From Spirochaetia bacterium (GTDB lineage: Bacteria > Spirochaetota > Spirochaetia > UBA9216), in NCBI GenBank assembly GCA_963677925.2, contig CAXXYH010000003.1, positions 608,001 to 672,000 of the forward strand: a DNA stretch of 64,000 nt. Direction: 5' to 3'. Of this stretch, positions 16,197 through 23,945 are shown piece after piece. Made by a program: the position numbers and the translations under genes. Under the pieces are notes generated by a model. It was not told the origin of the DNA, made no database searches, and was given only the letters and a program-made list of their open reading frames with translations. Every line of letters starts with the position of its first letter. Within the stretch, counting starts at the first letter, position 1.

Positions 16197-16475
16197 ATGC
16201 CTGAAAAGGGTGATATTTTCGATCTCGGTACTAATGAATATGTAGAATTCCTTGAAAATTTTGACGATCTTCATGATCTGGTTGGACATTATACAAGGGA
16301 TCCGGAAAACGCGCTGAAAGAAGTCAGAATACTCACACTGGTTCCTGTAAATTCTCTGGACGGCGAATACCGTAAAATCGGGCCCAATGAAAGAGAACGG
16401 CTGATGCATGTTTACAGGAATGCTTATCAGAAAAAATCTCCTGAATTCGAACGGCTGACAGGAACAGAGAAATAA
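16197..16475 (+). CDS. Hypothetical protein
   Basis: 92-aa ORF with strong GAGGAG RBS. Confidence 0.7.
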   Translation: MPEKGDIFDLGTNEYVEFLENFDDLHDLVGHYTRDPENALKEVRILTLVPVNSLDGEYRKIGPNERERLMHVYRNAYQKKSPEFERLTGTEK

Positions 16476-16498: not shown

Positions 16499-17323
16499 CT
16501 ACATCAGAATTCCGCTGTAGTCTTTCCTGAATCCTTTGAGGATAGGAAGCTGTTCCCTGTAGCTGTAGACCTTATCGGTGTTTATTTCCCTGATTAAAAT
16601 TCCCTCATCCTCATCCAGCGAATCCATAACCTCACCCCATGGATCAGTTATTAGAGAATTCCCCCATGAGAGATATCCGGCATCGTGATTTCGGGCGGGA
16701 GCGCATCCAGCCATAAAAACCTGATTATCCACTGCCCGTATACGGAATGTCAGCTCCCAGTGTGCAGGCCCGGTAGTCATATTGAATGCTCCGGGAACGA
16801 TGATTGTGTGAGCACCCTGGACCGCCATTTCTCTGAACATTTCTGCAAACCTGATATCAAAGCAGATCGCCACCCCGATTTTACCGAACTCGGTATCAAT
16901 TACAGTTACCCTGTTACCGGGACTGAGGGTTTCGGATTCATGAAAACTGATTCCGCCCTCAATATCAACATCAAAAAGATGGAGTTTCCTGTGCCTTTCA
17001 ATAAGATCTCCATCCTTGTTGAAGCAGAAGCATGTGTTGAATATTTTTCCGTCGGAAGCTTTCTCAGGTATGGATCCGCCGATAAGCACTATTTTATAGT
17101 CGCTTGCAAGCCGTGATAATCTTTTTACCGTTTTACCGTTATCGGTTTCTGCATAATCTGGAAAACAGCTGTTATCATAAGGGCAATTAAACATTTCAGG
17201 CAGGACTACCACATCGGCTCCGGATTCTACGGCTGAGTCTATCATCTTCTCTGCATGTTCGAGATTCTTATCCTTGGAAGTTTCTACAAGCATCTGTATA
17301 AGTGCAAGGTTGAAAACAGACAT
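16499..17323 (-). CDS. Carbon-nitrogen hydrolase (Nit/omega-amidase-like)
   Basis: LPEMFNCPY, HRKLHLFD, AICFDIRF (E-K-C triad), TTGPAHWE. Confidence 0.93.
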   Translation of the reverse strand: MSVFNLALIQMLVETSKDKNLEHAEKMIDSAVESGADVVVLPEMFNCPYDNSCFPDYAETDNGKTVKRLSRLASDYKIVLIGGSIPEKASDGKIFNTCFCFNKDGDLIERHRKLHLFDVDIEGGISFHESETLSPGNRVTVIDTEFGKIGVAICFDIRFAEMFREMAVQGAHTIIVPGAFNMTTGPAHWELTFRIRAVDNQVFMAGCAPARNHDAGYLSWGNSLITDPWGEVMDSLDEDEGILIREINTDKVYSYREQLPILKGFRKDYSGILM

Positions 17324-17947: not shown

Positions 17948-18081
17948 GACGATTAGTATAGCTCTTATATATTTTTTTTTCGAGTAATACAGCACGTAAT
18001 TATCCAAAGCTCTTAATCTTTCTTTTTTTATCGACTTTGAAGTTTTTTTTGTATATATTCATAGAAACGAGGTTATGAACA

Positions 18082-19317
18082 TTGCTTAAAATATATAACA
18101 CCATGGCCAGGGAGCTTGAGGAATTCAGGCCGAGGAATGGGAAAAACGTAAAAATATTTACATGCGGACCATCAATTTATCAGAAAGCTCATCTTGGCAA
18201 CTACAGAACCTTTCTTTATGAAGATCTGCTGGTAAGGTATCTCAAGTTCAGCGGTTACCATGTTGAACGGGCGATGAACCTTACTGATATTGAAGATAAA
18301 ACCATCTCGGAAGCTAAAAAGAAAGGTGTTGCAGTTCACGAGCTTACGGGCGACGTGCTTGCTATATTCAGAGACAGTCTGAACGGCTTTGATTTTGTTA
18401 TGCCGGAACACCTCATTCCAGCAACAGAAAGCATTGACTCCACAGTAAAAATTATTAAAACCCTTGTTGAGAAGGGAATTGCCTATGAACTTGACGGTGA
18501 TTATTTTTTCGATCCATTGAAAGTAGATAATTTCGGAAAACTTTTTCAGCTTGATATGAAACGCTGGCCTAAAGAGAAAAGGCGTTTCCGTCGTGATACC
18601 TATAACGGCAATAGATGGAACCTTGGTGATTTCATCCTGTGGCATGCAGACGGAGAAGAATACGGACCTGTCTGGGACACAGAAATAGGAAAAGGGCGTC
18701 CGTCCTGGAATATTCAGGATCCGGCCATTGTAGTAATGAGTCTTGGAGATCAGGTAGATATAAACTGCGGAGGTATTGATAATATTTACCGCCACCACGA
18801 TTACAATATAGCAGTAATGGAGGGATATTCCGGTAAAGACTATGCAAACTACTACATGCACGGCGAACACCTGGTAGTTGACGGAATTTCCATGTCCAAG
18901 AGCCGGGGCAATATCGTTTACCCTGAAGATCTTGTAAAAAAGGGTCACTCCTGGAAAGAGATCCGTTTTTTCCTCACCTACCGGCATTACCGGAAGAAGC
19001 TGAATTATACCGAAGAGCATTTTAATAAGACGGTTAAAATCCTGCATGATTTCAGGAACTCAATCGACTCGGTTAATGGCAGAGGAAAAAAAGACAGCAC
19101 TGCAGCAGGAGAACTGATAGATAATATCAATCCCGCCTTTTCAGAACAGCTTGATAAAGATCTTTCACTGGGCAAGGGTTTTGATGCTGTATACACCATT
19201 GTTAAGAAGCTTGAGAAAATATCAAAGGCAGAGGCTTTGTCTGAAAATCAGTTAAAAAGCCTTAAATCTGAACTGAAAAAAATTGACAATGTACTTAATG
19301 TAATCTACCCTACCTGA
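18082..19317 (+). CDS. Cysteinyl-tRNA synthetase-like protein (truncated, divergent active site)
   Basis: TCGP, HLGN (HIGH), SMSKS, HYRKKLNY; GRPSWNIQD and HHDYN replace GRPGWHIEC and HHENE; no C-terminal anticodon domain. Confidence 0.9.
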   Translation: MLKIYNTMARELEEFRPRNGKNVKIFTCGPSIYQKAHLGNYRTFLYEDLLVRYLKFSGYHVERAMNLTDIEDKTISEAKKKGVAVHELTGDVLAIFRDSLNGFDFVMPEHLIPATESIDSTVKIIKTLVEKGIAYELDGDYFFDPLKVDNFGKLFQLDMKRWPKEKRRFRRDTYNGNRWNLGDFILWHADGEEYGPVWDTEIGKGRPSWNIQDPAIVVMSLGDQVDINCGGIDNIYRHHDYNIAVMEGYSGKDYANYYMHGEHLVVDGISMSKSRGNIVYPEDLVKKGHSWKEIRFFLTYRHYRKKLNYTEEHFNKTVKILHDFRNSIDSVNGRGKKDSTAAGELIDNINPAFSEQLDKDLSLGKGFDAVYTIVKKLEKISKAEALSENQLKSLKSELKKIDNVLNVIYPT

Positions 19318-19351: not shown

Positions 19352-19717
19352 ATGAATCTTAGCTATAAAAACATCATCTCTTATGTATGGGCAAGAGATC
19401 CTGAAAAAACTATTAATTTTTATACTGCAATTTTAGGTTTCAAAAAAGCATTTGAATCTGACGGATGGACTGAACTTGCGGTTCCGGGAACAACCAACAC
19501 CTACCTTGCAGTTAACAAGTGGAGCAAGGAAGGAACCTACCCGGTCAACGAGTTTCTGACACTCGGTATAGAAGACCTAGATGCATTCAAGGCTCACCTT
19601 GTTGCCGAAGAAGTTACACTTTACGGTGATATAGTGGATTTCCCCGAGCAGGATATGCGGATGCTTAAGTTTTATGATCCTGACAAGAATGTACTGACAG
19701 TATCTGAGGTAAAGTAA
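19352..19717 (+). CDS. VOC/glyoxalase family protein
   Basis: FYTAILGF, W.EL, F.DPDKN.L. Confidence 0.88.
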   Translation: MNLSYKNIISYVWARDPEKTINFYTAILGFKKAFESDGWTELAVPGTTNTYLAVNKWSKEGTYPVNEFLTLGIEDLDAFKAHLVAEEVTLYGDIVDFPEQDMRMLKFYDPDKNVLTVSEVK

Positions 19718-19743: not shown

Positions 19744-19772
19744 AAAGCTGCCTTTTATCAGGCAGCTTTTTT
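19744..19772. terminator. Intrinsic terminator between convergent genes
   Basis: AAAGCTGCCT-tttatc-AGGCAGCTTT stem plus T-run. Confidence 0.85.
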
Positions 19773-19820: not shown

Positions 19821-21368
19821 TTAAAGCCCGTATTTACAAAGTCTCAGTTTTTCCAGTGAACCTCCAAGCAGCAGGATCTCATCTTCCAGAAGAAAAATTG
19901 CATCGATATCCGGATTACTAAAGCCGTCATCCCAGGGAAAAACAAGTCCTGTCCCGCCGAAAGTTTTGTCCAAATCTCCGTCAGGGGTGTAGCGGAAAAG
20001 ACCGCTTGTTTTATAATAAGCGTTAGATGTGCCAACAATGTAGTTGCCCGCATCATCCGTAATTAGCGCTGATAGGGAAAATCTGTAATCGTCTAAAATT
20101 TCTTCAACAATACCATTGCTGCCGAAGCTTGTATCGAAAACTCCAGCAGCAGTAAATCTTGCAAGAAAAATATCTTCATCAGTATTTTCATCAGCATGGA
20201 TAGTTCCACCCACCGTAATCGAACCGTCATCATGAAGCAACAGAGATACAGGACCGTAATAAAAGGTCTCATTGCCTTCAATTACGGCATATCCTGATGA
20301 ATCTGTTCCGAAGTCTGAATCAAGACTGCCATCGGTGTTGAACCTTGCAAGGATCAAATCCTTACCGGAATCACTTGAACGTACACCTGAACCAAGAGCG
20401 AGGATCTTACCGTCAGCCTGCTCGCCGAGCTTATAACCTGCGGTGCTTGTATAATCAGCATTACTGAAATATGCAGTCCCATCGCTGCCGAAACTGGAAT
20501 CTGTTCCGCCGTCTTCTTCACGGATGTTGATATATAAACGGTCCATCTCATTATAGTTTCTGGTTCCGATTGCTGCAAAACTTCCGGAAGCAAGAATTTC
20601 CAAATCTTCTATCGATATTGCATAAACAAGAGGCATGATTCCGTCACCGTTGAATGTTGCGTCCAGGTTTCCATCGGCGTCGTAGCGATATCCGACTGTT
20701 ACATCTGTAGGCGAAAGATCGCGAATTCCGCCGGCCAGTATTCTACCGTCAGCATAAACATCAAAACAACGGAGTTCTTCGGCATTGACAGAATCAGGGT
20801 AATAGGCGATTCCATCGCCCCCCCCGAAGCTTGTATCGGGTTCACCAGAAAGCAGAAGCCTGGTAACGATAAAATCAGTGTCATCCTCAGACCCCACTAA
20901 AATACTTGCTGAATCATATCTTACTGCATCATAAACCATCGAATAGGTGATACCAATCTCATCATTTATATCAACAACCACTACACCGTCTTCCCCATAC
21001 TCAGGGTCGATAGTACCGCATTGACTGACTTTCACCTCACACTCTTCCTGATAGTAGGAATCCTGACTGGATGTAGCGGTTATCACAGCAGTGCCTTCTG
21101 ACAGCGCTGTGACTGTAGTCTCTGTACCTGTATCAGCGACAGAGACTACCGAACTGTCAGAGCTTCTCCAGGTTACGCTGAAAGCATCGTCTCCGTCAAA
21201 AATTTTAACCGTAAGCTCACGCTCTTCACCCCTGAAAAGCTCCAGAGACGTATTGGAAAGCGACAGTCCCGTCACGGGATTAGACTCGCAGGAGGAAAGA
21301 AGTAGTACAAAAACAAAACTGAAACTAAAAAGATAAAATAGCGTCTTTCGAATGTTATACAATTTCAT
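19821..21368 (-). CDS. Lipoprotein with Ig-like (Big_2) domain and delta-60 repeats
   Basis: LLSSC lipobox; VTWRSSDSSVVSV...GTAVITAT; repeated ARFxxDGxLDxxFG and QADGKIL. Confidence 0.85.
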   Translation of the reverse strand: MKLYNIRKTLFYLFSFSFVFVLLLSSCESNPVTGLSLSNTSLELFRGEERELTVKIFDGDDAFSVTWRSSDSSVVSVADTGTETTVTALSEGTAVITATSSQDSYYQEECEVKVSQCGTIDPEYGEDGVVVVDINDEIGITYSMVYDAVRYDSASILVGSEDDTDFIVTRLLLSGEPDTSFGGGDGIAYYPDSVNAEELRCFDVYADGRILAGGIRDLSPTDVTVGYRYDADGNLDATFNGDGIMPLVYAISIEDLEILASGSFAAIGTRNYNEMDRLYINIREEDGGTDSSFGSDGTAYFSNADYTSTAGYKLGEQADGKILALGSGVRSSDSGKDLILARFNTDGSLDSDFGTDSSGYAVIEGNETFYYGPVSLLLHDDGSITVGGTIHADENTDEDIFLARFTAAGVFDTSFGSNGIVEEILDDYRFSLSALITDDAGNYIVGTSNAYYKTSGLFRYTPDGDLDKTFGGTGLVFPWDDGFSNPDIDAIFLLEDEILLLGGSLEKLRLCKYGL

Positions 21369-21382
21369 ACTAAGCTCCTCAA

Positions 21383-22423
21383 TTAGGGGGTGTATTTAAA
21401 CAGATACCCCGAAGAACTTCCCGGTAAGAACCCGTCACCGAATCCTGTCCACTGCCTTAAAAAATATGCATCCCCATCACATAAAACGAAAGAGCTGTTA
21501 CCGTAATCCATGAAATATCCCTCAGGGAAAGATGCAAGCTCTGTCCATTCTGTATCTCCGGGAGTCCATGAATACAGCTTATTCTCATCACCTAGAACAT
21601 AACCGGTTCCGTCTATAGAGAATCCTTTTTCCACTACTCCTGCAGATTCCGGCAGGGAAGGAATTGACACCCAGCTTCCATCGGCAGGATCAAATTCGCT
21701 GAACTCACGAACCGCATTAGTATCCACTCCATCATCGTCGGGGTCCTCGGAACTGTCAACAGGATATTTTCCACCGCCGGAATAGATCTTGTCTCCGATT
21801 GTAAAAAAAGCAGGGTTTCTATAACCGGAATAATCCGAATCGGACATTTGTCTTGTCACTACAGGATCTGCTGTATCGAAATACCAGCTGTAATAGACAT
21901 AATCATAACTATCAGAGGTTCCGAACAAAATGCAGCTGTCTGTCCACGCACAATCAAGACCACTGGCGGGTATATTACTGAAATCAAGTGTTGTAAGTGT
22001 TAAGGTGCCTGCATCAACATCATATTCCCAGACAGTATCATGATTCCAGCCTTCAACAACATAAACCTTTCCATCATGTTCATAAGTTGTACATGAGTCA
22101 TCATCCCTGGTTTCATGACCGCTTATTTCTATCTCTGTCCAGCTTTCGGATTCAGGATTATAAGTCCACATATCAAGCAATGGATTATCAGTGTCTTCAT
22201 GATGTCCAAGACCGTAGTAAACCAGCCCGTCACGTTCAAATAGAACTGCTTCTGCTCTTTTATCTCCAGGGAAGGTTGTCTTTCGCTCCCAGAAATCATG
22301 ATCAAGAGCATTGTCCCTGTCTGCTGCAAAGATTGCCGAATCAGCTGCTGATGGATCAAAGAGATCACAGGCAGTAAAAACAATAAGAGCCAGAATTATT
22401 AAACCTATCATTTTATTCTTCAT
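21383..22423 (-). CDS. Kelch-repeat lipoprotein
   Basis: FTAC lipobox; FPGxxR, YYGLG, DMWTYNP...W, IYSGGG, EFDP...W. Confidence 0.82.
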   Translation of the reverse strand: MKNKMIGLIILALIVFTACDLFDPSAADSAIFAADRDNALDHDFWERKTTFPGDKRAEAVLFERDGLVYYGLGHHEDTDNPLLDMWTYNPESESWTEIEISGHETRDDDSCTTYEHDGKVYVVEGWNHDTVWEYDVDAGTLTLTTLDFSNIPASGLDCAWTDSCILFGTSDSYDYVYYSWYFDTADPVVTRQMSDSDYSGYRNPAFFTIGDKIYSGGGKYPVDSSEDPDDDGVDTNAVREFSEFDPADGSWVSIPSLPESAGVVEKGFSIDGTGYVLGDENKLYSWTPGDTEWTELASFPEGYFMDYGNSSFVLCDGDAYFLRQWTGFGDGFLPGSSSGYLFKYTP

Positions 22424-23945
22424 TCAAGGCCCCCTGCAGTTTTTCAATCTTTCTTTCGATACTGGCTTCCCGGCCTGCCAGCAATACTGATATGAGTGTA
22501 AAGCCTGCGGCCGGCGCTCCTATATACAATGACGTATCACGAAACTCACGCCAGATAAAAATATTGTCTTCTTCAGCGGTTATTGCTGCACCCAGACGGT
22601 CCACTTCCGCCTGAGTAGTCGCAGCATCATACAGCGGTGCAAGCTCTGTCAGCTCATCTGTTGCCGACCATATCATATACTCTCCGGCAGCCGCGACTGA
22701 AGCACTCACGGCAGTTATCGAGCCGAAGATCCAGCTGCATCCCTTCCAGAATGCGGTAGATTTTTTTGCTCCTTCAAGCTTGAGACTAAGCTCAGCTATT
22801 TCTTCGCGTATTAAATATTCTTCTGTATATTCAAGTTCCTGTTCAATTCTTAATGTTTCATCACGGACTATCTCAACATCGATCACCGTATCTTTATAAT
22901 CCGGATGCGATACAGTTACTTTATAACTGCCTGCTGCCAAAGTGTTAGTAGAGTTGGCTTTTAGCTGAATAAGCTCACCATCCTTATTCACAGCTTTGGC
23001 AGCTGCGCCTTCAGTACCAAGTATTTCAAGATACCCGCCCGGTATAAGCTCAATAGTCAGGCGTGTTGTTACACCTGACTCTATTTCAACATCATCGATA
23101 TAGAACCATCCATCACCCTCGACATGAATTTGTTTGGTTCCTGCAGGAACAGCTTTGTTGAGCCCCTTCTTTGCGGAAAAATCTCCGATGGTTATTTCAT
23201 ATCCTGCGGCTTCTTTCGGAATAACCGTAAGAATTACGTTTCCAGTAAGCAGTTTGATATCAGCTTCAATTTCTACAATATCTTTGGATAGAATTGTTAT
23301 CTCTTTTGTAAAAACATTATCTTCTGACTTTACCTCTACCAGATGGCTGCCAAACACTACATTTTCAATAAGCAGTGGAGTAATCCCAACACTCTCACCG
23401 TCCAGAAATACTTCAAGTTCAAGATCATCGGGGGCAGTAACATAAATTTCACCGACGACTTCGAATGAAACTCCGGTTTCCGGATTGTAATCCAGCCCCG
23501 CCAGCTTGTATGAAGCCGAAAAAACCTGTTCCTGCATTTCATCAAGTGAGCTGAATGTTACAACTTCGGCTCCTACGGTTCTGCTTGTTCCTACATCAAT
23601 CATGCGGACAGCGAGGTTATATGTACTTCCAACAGCCGACAATTCTCCAAGCACAATAATTTCTGCGGCAAGAAGTTTACCGACTTCGATCGCACATGAA
23701 TCATCAGTACAGCCGGAAAGAGAAAAAGCCTGTGCTTCCAGAATCTCCTGCATGTCGTTGTAGCTTAAAACCGTGTACAGATCTGTTTTAAAAAGGGCTG
23801 TCTCTACAATACTCCGGCAGGCTGTGGCATCCGCTTCTGAAACACCGTTTGCAGTTATAGCTGTTACAGCAAGAAGCGGTTTACTCTGAGCATAAACACT
23901 CGCTGAACCTACTAATAAAAATAAACATATTATATATTTCCGCAT
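22413..23945 (-). CDS. Exported protein: CsgG/TolB-N-like domain, PEGA domains and C-terminal helical hairpin
   Basis: EQAFSLSGC.DDSCAIEVGKLL; VFLDGESVGITPL; GSYKVTVSHPDY; two hydrophobic C-terminal helices. Confidence 0.8.
   Translation of the reverse strand: MRKYIICLFLLVGSASVYAQSKPLLAVTAITANGVSEADATACRSIVETALFKTDLYTVLSYNDMQEILEAQAFSLSGCTDDSCAIEVGKLLAAEIIVLGELSAVGSTYNLAVRMIDVGTSRTVGAEVVTFSSLDEMQEQVFSASYKLAGLDYNPETGVSFEVVGEIYVTAPDDLELEVFLDGESVGITPLLIENVVFGSHLVEVKSEDNVFTKEITILSKDIVEIEADIKLLTGNVILTVIPKEAAGYEITIGDFSAKKGLNKAVPAGTKQIHVEGDGWFYIDDVEIESGVTTRLTIELIPGGYLEILGTEGAAAKAVNKDGELIQLKANSTNTLAAGSYKVTVSHPDYKDTVIDVEIVRDETLRIEQELEYTEEYLIREEIAELSLKLEGAKKSTAFWKGCSWIFGSITAVSASVAAAGEYMIWSATDELTELAPLYDAATTQAEVDRLGAAITAEEDNIFIWREFRDTSLYIGAPAAGFTLISVLLAGREASIERKIEKLQGALNEE

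Follow-up and report, generated by a model that had tools for sequence, protein, structure and literature searches.

What does a cell that already possesses a complete cysteinyl-tRNA synthetase (CysRS) do with a second, shortened one whose zinc site has been altered? The question is raised by a gene in a 64,000-nucleotide stretch of contig CAXXYH010000003.1 from a Spirochaetia bacterium (this whole stretch is hereafter called the window), which encodes a CysRS paralogue of 411 amino acids. The paralogue is an intact, selected and accessory derivative of CysRS, with invariant adenylation motifs and a Cys/Asp/His triad at the zinc site. Its function is assigned tentatively, and the favored assignment, whose chances fall somewhat short of even, is an MshC-like, ATP-dependent ligase that works independently of tRNA and probably uses cysteine. 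A preliminary description of the gene, made without database searches, had proposed a repurposed adenylating enzyme with a different amino acid or acceptor. An intact and selected enzyme, conserved as a family, is indeed what is found; the step to a different amino acid is not specifically supported.

The CysRS of the cell is a different protein. A canonical cysS, which the preliminary description had suggested looking for, is present in the same genome (5.04 Mb in 4 contigs, 99.6% complete), at C3:592628-594022 on the minus strand (locus L001; 465 amino acids, 487.8 bits), approximately 14 kb before the start of the window. The paralogue is therefore neither the housekeeping enzyme nor the only cysS of this genome. 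The canonical enzyme of the host carries an insertion, GHLTGDADDG, after the sequence NITDV, and the paralogue family is without it. The tRNA complement of the genome comprises 46 ordinary tRNAs, with one tRNA-Cys(GCA); neither a tRNA-Sec nor a second tRNA-Cys is found in this set, and the sole tRNA gene in the window is a tRNA-Gly located 42 kb from the paralogue.

The protein and its zinc site

The gene is an intact open reading frame (ORF) that is colinear with CysRS, and the motifs first quoted from it are found at the places given for them (Table 1). Its start codon is preceded by an AGG approximately 8 nt upstream, and homologues begin with MLK[LI]YNT at the same place. The protein matches the Pfam family tRNA-synt_1e at 1.8e-70. 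Its score against the cysS model TIGR00435, 301.6 bits over model positions 1-399 of 466, is under the cut-off of 340, and its score against the MshC model TIGR03447 is 209.9 bits (model positions 18-382 of 411), compared to a cut-off of 485.1. Identity to CysRS is about 30%. In the alignment with Escherichia coli CysRS (1li5), residues 1-407 of the paralogue are matched to residues 1-393 of the 461 in the chain, and the numbering of the zinc positions was counted from this printed alignment. Cys28 and His234 (as His238) are kept, whereas Asp213 stands in place of Cys209 and Asn242 in place of Glu238, which confirms the two substitutions that drew attention to the gene. Around the aspartate, in the sequence GRPSWNIQDP, His206 has become Asn, Glu208 has become Gln and Ser210 has become Pro (E. 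coli numbering). The HLGN sequence of the paralogue is not a deviation from the class I HIGH motif, since H-x-G-N is its commonest form among the canonical CysRS sequences sampled.

An AlphaFold2 model, with the family alignment as input, has a predicted local distance difference test (pLDDT) score of 91.0 and a predicted template modeling (pTM) score of 0.90, with the lowest confidence in the connective-peptide (CP) loop and around residues 230-240. The top Foldseek match is the CysRS structure 8qhp (TM 0.89, root-mean-square deviation 2.3 A), followed by 1u0b at 0.86; the MshC structures 3c8z and 8hfm come close behind CysRS, at 0.80-0.82. The fold of canonical CysRS (TIGR00435, PF01406; 8qhp, 1li5/1u0b) is shared over all 411 residues, at TM values of 0.83-0.89. 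When the CP region (residues 140-200) was searched alone, no match was obtained in the PDB.

The statement that the protein has no anticodon-binding domain stands in part. What is absent is the final C-terminal domain only, of about 55-65 residues, and the canonical cysS product of this genome is longer by approximately 55 residues. The helix bundle that precedes this domain is retained (helices 311-405 of the model), and AARS Online counts it as the anticodon-binding bundle shared by CysRS and its relatives (PMC11580382). The DALR_2 model matches the bundle with 13.9 bits, under its cut-off.

A widespread accessory family

A word-indexed homologue search, in which 8000 candidates were scored, yielded 2582 relatives. 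The best 120 of these range from 350 to 446 amino acids and from 49 to 96% identity, with a uniform length of approximately 410 amino acids apart from one row of 350. The source names, where there are any, are 'cysteinyl-tRNA synthetase' and 'class I tRNA ligase family protein', with 'hypothetical protein' in a single row. A two-motif pattern scan that covered 185,579 species, each by a single genome, matched at least 596 stretches, and at least 538 of these encode a relative. The best 80 scan matches are from Spirochaetota, Leptospirales, Syntrophobacteraceae, Desulfobacteraceae and Acidobacteriota, along with a few archaea-labeled records. Three such members (L070 on CP070751.1, L069 and L076) are found on records labeled Thermoplasmata (a 5.16-Mb chromosome), Bathyarchaeia and Methanocellales; they are 48-50% identical to the spirochaete protein and represent either inter-domain transfer or mislabeled bins. 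Fused, longer forms were not seen, in that no relative of 721-2055 amino acids was found at E <= 1e-60, which is weak evidence.

Within an even set of 301 genomes of the window's phylum, the family is present in 18, with scores of 594.6-681.5 bits; the next-best matches, at 403 bits or less, are canonical cysS. Two matches are seen in each of these 18 genomes. The family is thus an accessory and patchily distributed paralogue.

At the four zinc positions, the 272 aligned proteins read C-D-H-N in 123 cases, C-D-H-T in 2, C-D-H-V in 3 and C-C-H-E in 121, where the first three patterns account for the 128 complete rows and N-terminally incomplete rows are additional. Twenty-five diverse members were invariant at C28, G29, P30, H37, G39, N40, T68, D69, W209, N210, Q212, D213, R237, H238, H239, D240, Y241, M271, S272 and K273. 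Among these residues, Cys28, Gly29, Thr68 and Trp209 correspond to those that bind the substrate cysteine, by its backbone and thiol, in E. coli CysRS. The ratio of non-synonymous to synonymous substitution rates (dN/dS) is 0.088 at a dS of 0.17 in comparison with the nearest relative, L005 (97% identity), and 0.078 in comparison with L006. The paralogue is under strong selection and is not decaying, and the doubt initially attached to it, namely whether its substitutions are conserved in homologues, is settled by these ratios and by the near-invariance of the motifs.

Ancestry

A maximum-likelihood tree of 43 rows was constructed in IQ-TREE (LG+C20+F+G4 with posterior mean site frequencies, PMSF), with support given as ultrafast bootstrap and Shimodaira-Hasegawa-like approximate likelihood ratio test (SH-aLRT) values. 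The family forms a single clade (100/100), the stem of which has a length of 0.97 changes per site, and its sister is P0139, a protein of 411 amino acids with canonical ligands (97/88). The family and four short proteins of 405-413 amino acids (P0139, P0140, P0146 and P0157), all CysRS sequences that lack the C-terminal domain, are split at 100/99 from the 27 other proteins in the tree, of which 26 are full-length and one has 407 amino acids. A quick tree of 78 rows agrees. There is thus strong support for a split of the family from a short (approximately 410 amino acids) CysRS lineage. Because the family nests among short CysRS sequences with canonical residues, the loss of the C-terminal domain came first and the change of the pocket second.

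Three of the four short CysRS sequences are named by their sources from Micrarchaeota or 'ainarchaeum'. P0139, P0140 and P0146, two of which are named from DPANN archaea, resemble the family in length and in the absent C-terminal domain, but differ from it in retaining C/C/H/E and in passing the cysS cut-off (354-393 bits). At 13 of the 15 positions where the family has switched to a different conserved residue (listed below), at least two of these three sequences have the canonical residue; the exceptions are Ser31, which is held in common with the family, and position 237, which is Ala in two of the three. The fourth sequence, P0157, reads C-C-H-T with WNVQ and looks intermediate.

Departures from canonical CysRS

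Conservation was compared in 126 family members at 82 positions, each with at least 85% conservation across 95 canonical CysRS sequences. The family keeps 55 of these positions, switches 15 to another conserved residue and relaxes 12. The switches, in the numbering of the paralogue, are Y26F, T31S, Y142F, Y151F, K178R, K188H, H210N, E212Q, C213D, S214P, H228N, F236Y, P237R, N241Y and E242N. Relaxation is seen, for example, at the first Lys of KMSKS and at the Gln that follows E-I-A, and the Lys of L-W-K is likewise not kept. Canonical CysRS differs from the family in its C-terminal domain, in Cys209, in Glu238 (Asn, Thr or Val in the family) and at 13 further switches, whereas Cys28, Gly29, Thr68, Trp205, His234 and His235 (E. 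coli numbering), the class I motifs, the stem-contact fold and the helix bundle are the same in both.

An Asp at position 209 is not confined to the family. It also occurs in a clade of mostly full-length CysRS, seven rows with the sequence GRPGWHIEDT (P0152, P0213, P0224, P0250, P0253, P0255 and P0267). On the cysS model, all five of these that were tested reach 414-487 bits, and since they branch inside the full-length group, the replacement of Cys by Asp has arisen at least twice.

Comparison with MshC

MshC is the L-cysteine:GlcN-Ins ligase of mycothiol synthesis, and the comparison with it is based on a PDB search with residues 196-262 and the resulting alignment to the Mycobacterium smegmatis enzyme (8hfm/3c8z). 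MshC was rightly said to keep the Cys ligand at 209, in the sequence GRPGWHVEC. It has PHHEYSAAH where CysRS has PHHENEIAQ, and DIQGGG where CysRS has DIHGGG. This cysteine-activating zinc enzyme hence has Ser at 238 and Tyr at 237, where the family has Asn242 and Tyr241, and the changes in MshC (Glu238 to Ser, Asn237 to Tyr and the His of DIHGGG to Gln) parallel those in the family (to Asn, Tyr and Asn, respectively). Both have also lost Gln241 and have Tyr in place of Trp254. Across residues 196-260, which contain 30 positions conserved in CysRS, MshC departs at 8 and the family at 14, with 7 in common (hypergeometric P = 0.0099). At the positions shared with MshC, the short CysRS sisters with canonical ligands retain the canonical residues.

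The likeness extends to the architecture, as MshC is a protein of approximately 410 amino acids with the CysRS body but without the last domain. At the zinc site, both have lost the Glu, whereas the second Cys is retained by MshC and is Asp in the paralogue. MshC is found in Actinomycetota, and the taxa of the family are different. The hidden Markov model and PDB scores both rank CysRS above MshC as the relative of the family, so that the resemblance is convergent.

With Asp209 occurring in full-length CysRS and Ser238 in MshC, neither ligand change alone excludes cysteine. Given also the invariance of the substrate residues, the suggestion that the altered zinc site signifies a different amino acid is not specifically supported.

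Proposed reaction and alternatives

We infer that a metal ion is still bound by the paralogue, together with an amino acid that carries a thiol and is most likely cysteine, because each of the ligand changes occurs alone in MshC or in proteins that score as CysRS, and because the substrate-binding residues of CysRS are invariant in the family. Less firmly, an MshC-like second half-reaction is inferred, as the family has given up the same residues as MshC and the short CysRS sisters have not. A thiol amino acid, most probably L-cysteine, would be bound on a zinc ion held by Cys28, Asp213 and His238, with the place of the fourth ligand, Glu238 in CysRS, vacant as it is in MshC. The retained H-x-G-N and M-S-K motifs would then make the aminoacyl-adenylate with ATP, and the aminoacyl group would be transferred, as by MshC, to form an amide or an ester with a nucleophile other than the 3' end of tRNA(Cys). 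The rebuilt and strongly basic CP loop suggests that this acceptor may be anionic. A more specific version, in which the enzyme is a cysteine ligase for an undescribed cysteine-containing small molecule of anaerobes, for example a low-molecular-weight thiol, and has evolved from a short CysRS separately from MshC, converging with it in the active site, is regarded as unlikely.

The thiol metabolism of the host bears on these proposals. Profile searches of the genome gave no match to gshA (TIGR01434, PF04107) or gshF, and the only match to gshB was a 73-bit ATP-grasp protein below the cut-off. BshB and BshC were not found, and BshA-like matches were far below the cut-off. The MshC pathway uses an amino sugar made available by an LmbE/PIG-L deacetylase (MshB), and no match to this family (PF02585, TIGR04001) was found in the genome at its 99.6% completeness; an amino-sugar acceptor produced by an LmbE-type deacetylase is therefore excluded here. 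With none of these genes recognized, the main thiol of the host beyond cysteine, if there is one, is unaccounted for. Both a replacement for BshC and an MshC pathway were considered as roles for the paralogue and rejected for this genome, which has no BshC, BshB1 or PIG-L and only the weak BshA-like matches. Upstream of the paralogue, on the minus strand at 16499-17323, is a C-N hydrolase gene whose best NCBIfam match is deaminated glutathione amidase, at 162 bits against a cut-off of 500; it resides in a genome without recognizable glutathione synthesis genes.

Several observations weigh against a tRNA-independent ligase. The family is basic, with a median isoelectric point (pI) of 8.95 and a median net charge of +7, compared to 5.83 and -9 in canonical CysRS. 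The shift is strongest within residues 150-200 (+4 in the family and -3 in canonical CysRS), and the paralogue in the window has a pI of 7.3, compared to 5.5 for the host's own cysS product. The residues R295, H302, Y303, R304 and D360, which are conserved in CysRS and belong to the stem contact or the helix bundle, are kept in the family, and its nearest relatives are short proteins named cysteine--tRNA ligase by their sources. The basic charge, these kept residues and the short-CysRS ancestry fit an RNA acceptor as well or better. No LmbE/PIG-L, BshA, BshB or BshC accompanies the paralogue in its genome, and none of its neighboring genes is conserved generally across 73 loci (8 of 81 sources were omitted because the target gene was not recovered by crude ORF calling and clustering). 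The comparison with MshC involves 65 residues and one MshC sequence, with states assigned by visual inspection, and a site under little constraint may differ in any paralogue. Finally, seven central departures around the Asp ligand are unique to the family (G204S, H206N, E208Q, C209D, S210P, F232Y and P233R in E. coli numbering), and these could indicate another amino acid or another metal.

The main alternative, and a serious one, is an RNA acceptor used without reading of the anticodon, which is judged possible but on balance doubtful. The acceptor would be a tRNA, reached through its acceptor arm in the manner proposed for CysRS*, or a modified nucleoside or other RNA, as in GluQRS, and the additional positive charge would compensate for the lost C-terminal domain. 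In addition to the charge and ancestry above, with short CysRS relatives whose ligands are canonical and whose scores are above the cysS cut-off, it is favored by the location of the basic shift, which is largest in the CP loop that faces the acceptor stem in CysRS. The scattered, housekeeping-like neighborhoods of the family are also typical of synthetases and tRNA-modification enzymes. There is a precedent in CysRS* of Desulfobacterales, which is described in excerpts of Mukai et al. (PMC5389517) as a second CysRS with no anticodon-binding domain and a changed CP1 region that serves a special tRNA; its gene is downstream of selB* and of selC*, which encodes a tRNA(Cys)UCA. By that description, the two proteins are alike as second CysRS forms that lack the last domain and have a changed CP1 region, and CysRS* occurs in deltaproteobacterial anaerobes. 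However, CysRS* is linked to selC*, and the paralogue is not linked to any such gene: no tRNA of the genome is spare or unusual, nothing resembling tRNA-Cys or tRNA-Sec accompanies the one tRNA-Cys(GCA), and a tRNA gene is present within 8 kb of the family gene at only 1 of 80 loci, where it is a tRNA-Gly. GluQRS (YadB) is a truncated paralogue of GluRS that glutamylates the queuosine of tRNA(Asp), and it resembles the paralogue as a class I protein without an anticodon-binding domain that stands alone in varied gene contexts (PMC9437257, excerpts). It derives from a different parent synthetase, and nothing points to a modified-nucleoside target for the paralogue; the comparison is one of analogy only. 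Against RNA, too, are the changes in the family at canonical residues that have also been lost from MshC, and the failure to keep the first Lys of KMSKS and the Lys of L-W-K.

It is more improbable that the paralogue is an isoenzyme for stress or metal sparing, charging ordinary tRNA(Cys) when the zinc enzyme fails under zinc scarcity, sulfide or oxidants. Excerpts of two articles (PMC2770081, PMC10882993) record second CysRS genes in zinc-starvation regulons, among them a Zur-regulated second CysRS of proteobacteria, and the replacement of one thiolate ligand by a carboxylate would be in keeping with such a role. The family is spread among anaerobes, some named from sulfate-reducing lineages, and some of its neighbors are stress genes (an OsmC fusion, HSP20 and ClpA/ClpS). 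However, the Zur-linked paralogues (CysS2) keep their zinc-binding residues, according to an excerpt of PMC2770081, whereas two of the four are changed in the family. No zinc-uptake, Zur or COG0523 gene is present among the annotated neighbors, which comprise families found in at least 4 loci and adjacent genes on the same strand. The 15 conserved switches and the stem of approximately 1 change per site exceed the needs of a metal swap, and the loss of the anticodon-reading domain would hurt the selection of tRNA(Cys). That the protein is a non-catalytic remnant, either a copy in decay or a protein that senses a ligand or regulates but forms no adenylate, is very improbable: the score is below the cysS cut-off and the first Lys of KMSKS is not conserved, but dN/dS is less than 0.1, H37, G39, N40, M271, S272 and K273 are invariant, the frame is intact, the length is uniform in the best 120 homologues with the one exception noted, and the model is confident.

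A CysRS-derived family with the Cys/Asp/His/Asn pattern is not described in text passages of articles on CysRS paralogues, MshC relatives and Zur-linked copies (PMC2922099, PMC9437257, PMC5389517, PMC10882993, PMC2770081, PMC10957091 and PMC11580382). The family is large, unstudied and widespread over bacterial phyla and archaea, and the synthetase paralogues that have left translation (MshC, GluQRS, CysRS*, PoxA and HisZ) have each opened new biochemistry. If the paralogue is a tRNA-independent cysteine ligase, the family would mark an unknown cysteine conjugate in anaerobes; if its acceptor is RNA, it would represent an aminoacylation of a new, non-canonical kind. Under both readings, cysS is a wrong database label for the family, and the family constitutes a natural experiment on the re-ligation of the CysRS zinc site.

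Gene neighborhood and expression signals

Table 1. Features of the paralogue gene and its immediate surroundings, in window coordinates.
Feature	Position	Strand	Basis or remark
Promoter-like site in the 74-nt divergent intergenic region	18031..18059	+	Consensus match only; 8 sites compared to 6.3 expected
CysRS-derived paralogue	18082..19317	+	TTG start, TGA stop, 411 amino acids; profile and alignment matches, AlphaFold2 model
Cys28, kept metal ligand, within FTCGPSIY (residues 26-33; 18157-18180)	18163..18165	+	Invariant in 25 of 25 family rows
HLGN (residues 37-40), class I HIGH-type motif	18190..18201	+	H37, G39 and N40 invariant
Rebuilt basic connective-peptide loop, WPKEKRRFRRDTYNGNRWNLGDFILWH	18565..18645	+	Strongly conserved in the family; lowest pLDDT of the model
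GRPSWNIQDP (residues 205-214); Trp209 kept, substitutions around Asp213	18694..18723	+	Alignment
NCGGID; canonical His of DIHGGG is Asn (Gln in MshC)	18763..18780	+	Alignment
RHHDYNIA (residues 237-244); His238 kept, Pro233 to Arg, Asn237 to Tyr, Glu238 to Asn242	18790..18813	+	Alignment
SMSKS (residues 270-274), KMSKS loop with invariant Met, Ser and second Lys; the first Lys is relaxed	18889..18903	+	
C-terminal helical bundle, DALR-like, residues ~321-411; last CysRS domain absent after it	19042..19314	+	
VOC/glyoxalase-family gene, 121 amino acids, 34 nt downstream	19352..19717	+	Pfam PF00903
G+C-rich hairpin, then a T run (+ strand), where the two-gene transcript likely ends	19744..19769	.	

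The paralogue is probably co-transcribed with the VOC gene that follows it, and the hairpin in Table 1 comes after the latter. A class I S-adenosylmethionine (SAM) methyltransferase gene is divergent from the paralogue, and upstream of this are genes for the C-N hydrolase and a YbaK-like tRNA_edit protein. In 9 of the 73 loci the methyltransferase lies next to the family gene, and in 7 the VOC gene is downstream on the same strand, in both cases at spirochaete relatives only. These two genes had been mentioned at the outset as possibly related, and neither is a general partner of the family. Relatives of the methyltransferase, which was considered for an N-methylated thiol after the example of NmbA, occur in 67 of the 301 phylum genomes; the 17 other carriers of the family have none, and the gene is rejected as a partner. 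With the query used, the VOC gene was matched in the host genome alone among the 301, and thus in none of the other 17 carriers, and is lineage-specific.

Six lineage-specific arrangements of neighbors are seen among the family loci: methyltransferase / gene-VOC; OsmC-hydrolase, HPF-CSD, CorC, gene; AMP-ligase, DHO_dh-like, gene, GFO oxidoreductase; START, patatin, gene, ABC (ATPase); MORN, GlmS, Rpe, gene; and ClpA, ClpS / gene. Carbonyl and sugar metabolism, represented by VOC, aldo-keto reductase, class II aldolase and Rpe, may be a loose theme.

No regulatory RNA was assigned to the family gene. A regular expression for the T-box core motif matched within 400 nt upstream at 0 of 72 loci, and Rfam gave no riboswitch for the family gene in 10 loci with long upstream gaps. 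In one locus (L027:7737-7847, minus strand), a thiamine pyrophosphate (TPP) riboswitch of 75.2 bits faces away and belongs to the divergent upstream gene. In the window itself, no Rfam family reached its gathering score between 14000 and 22000.

Two further observations concern the surrounding genes. An ORF of 92 amino acids on the plus strand (16197-16475), between the YbaK-like gene and the C-N hydrolase gene, has no Pfam or NCBIfam match, and its position is conserved in 6 sources, namely 5 related spirochaete loci and the window (cluster 20). On the other side of the paralogue, the minus strand at 19821-23945 encodes three probable exported proteins in a row: a protein of 515 amino acids with Big_2 and a DUF5122 beta-propeller, a Kelch-repeat protein of 346 amino acids, and a PEGA/CsgG-like protein of 510 amino acids.

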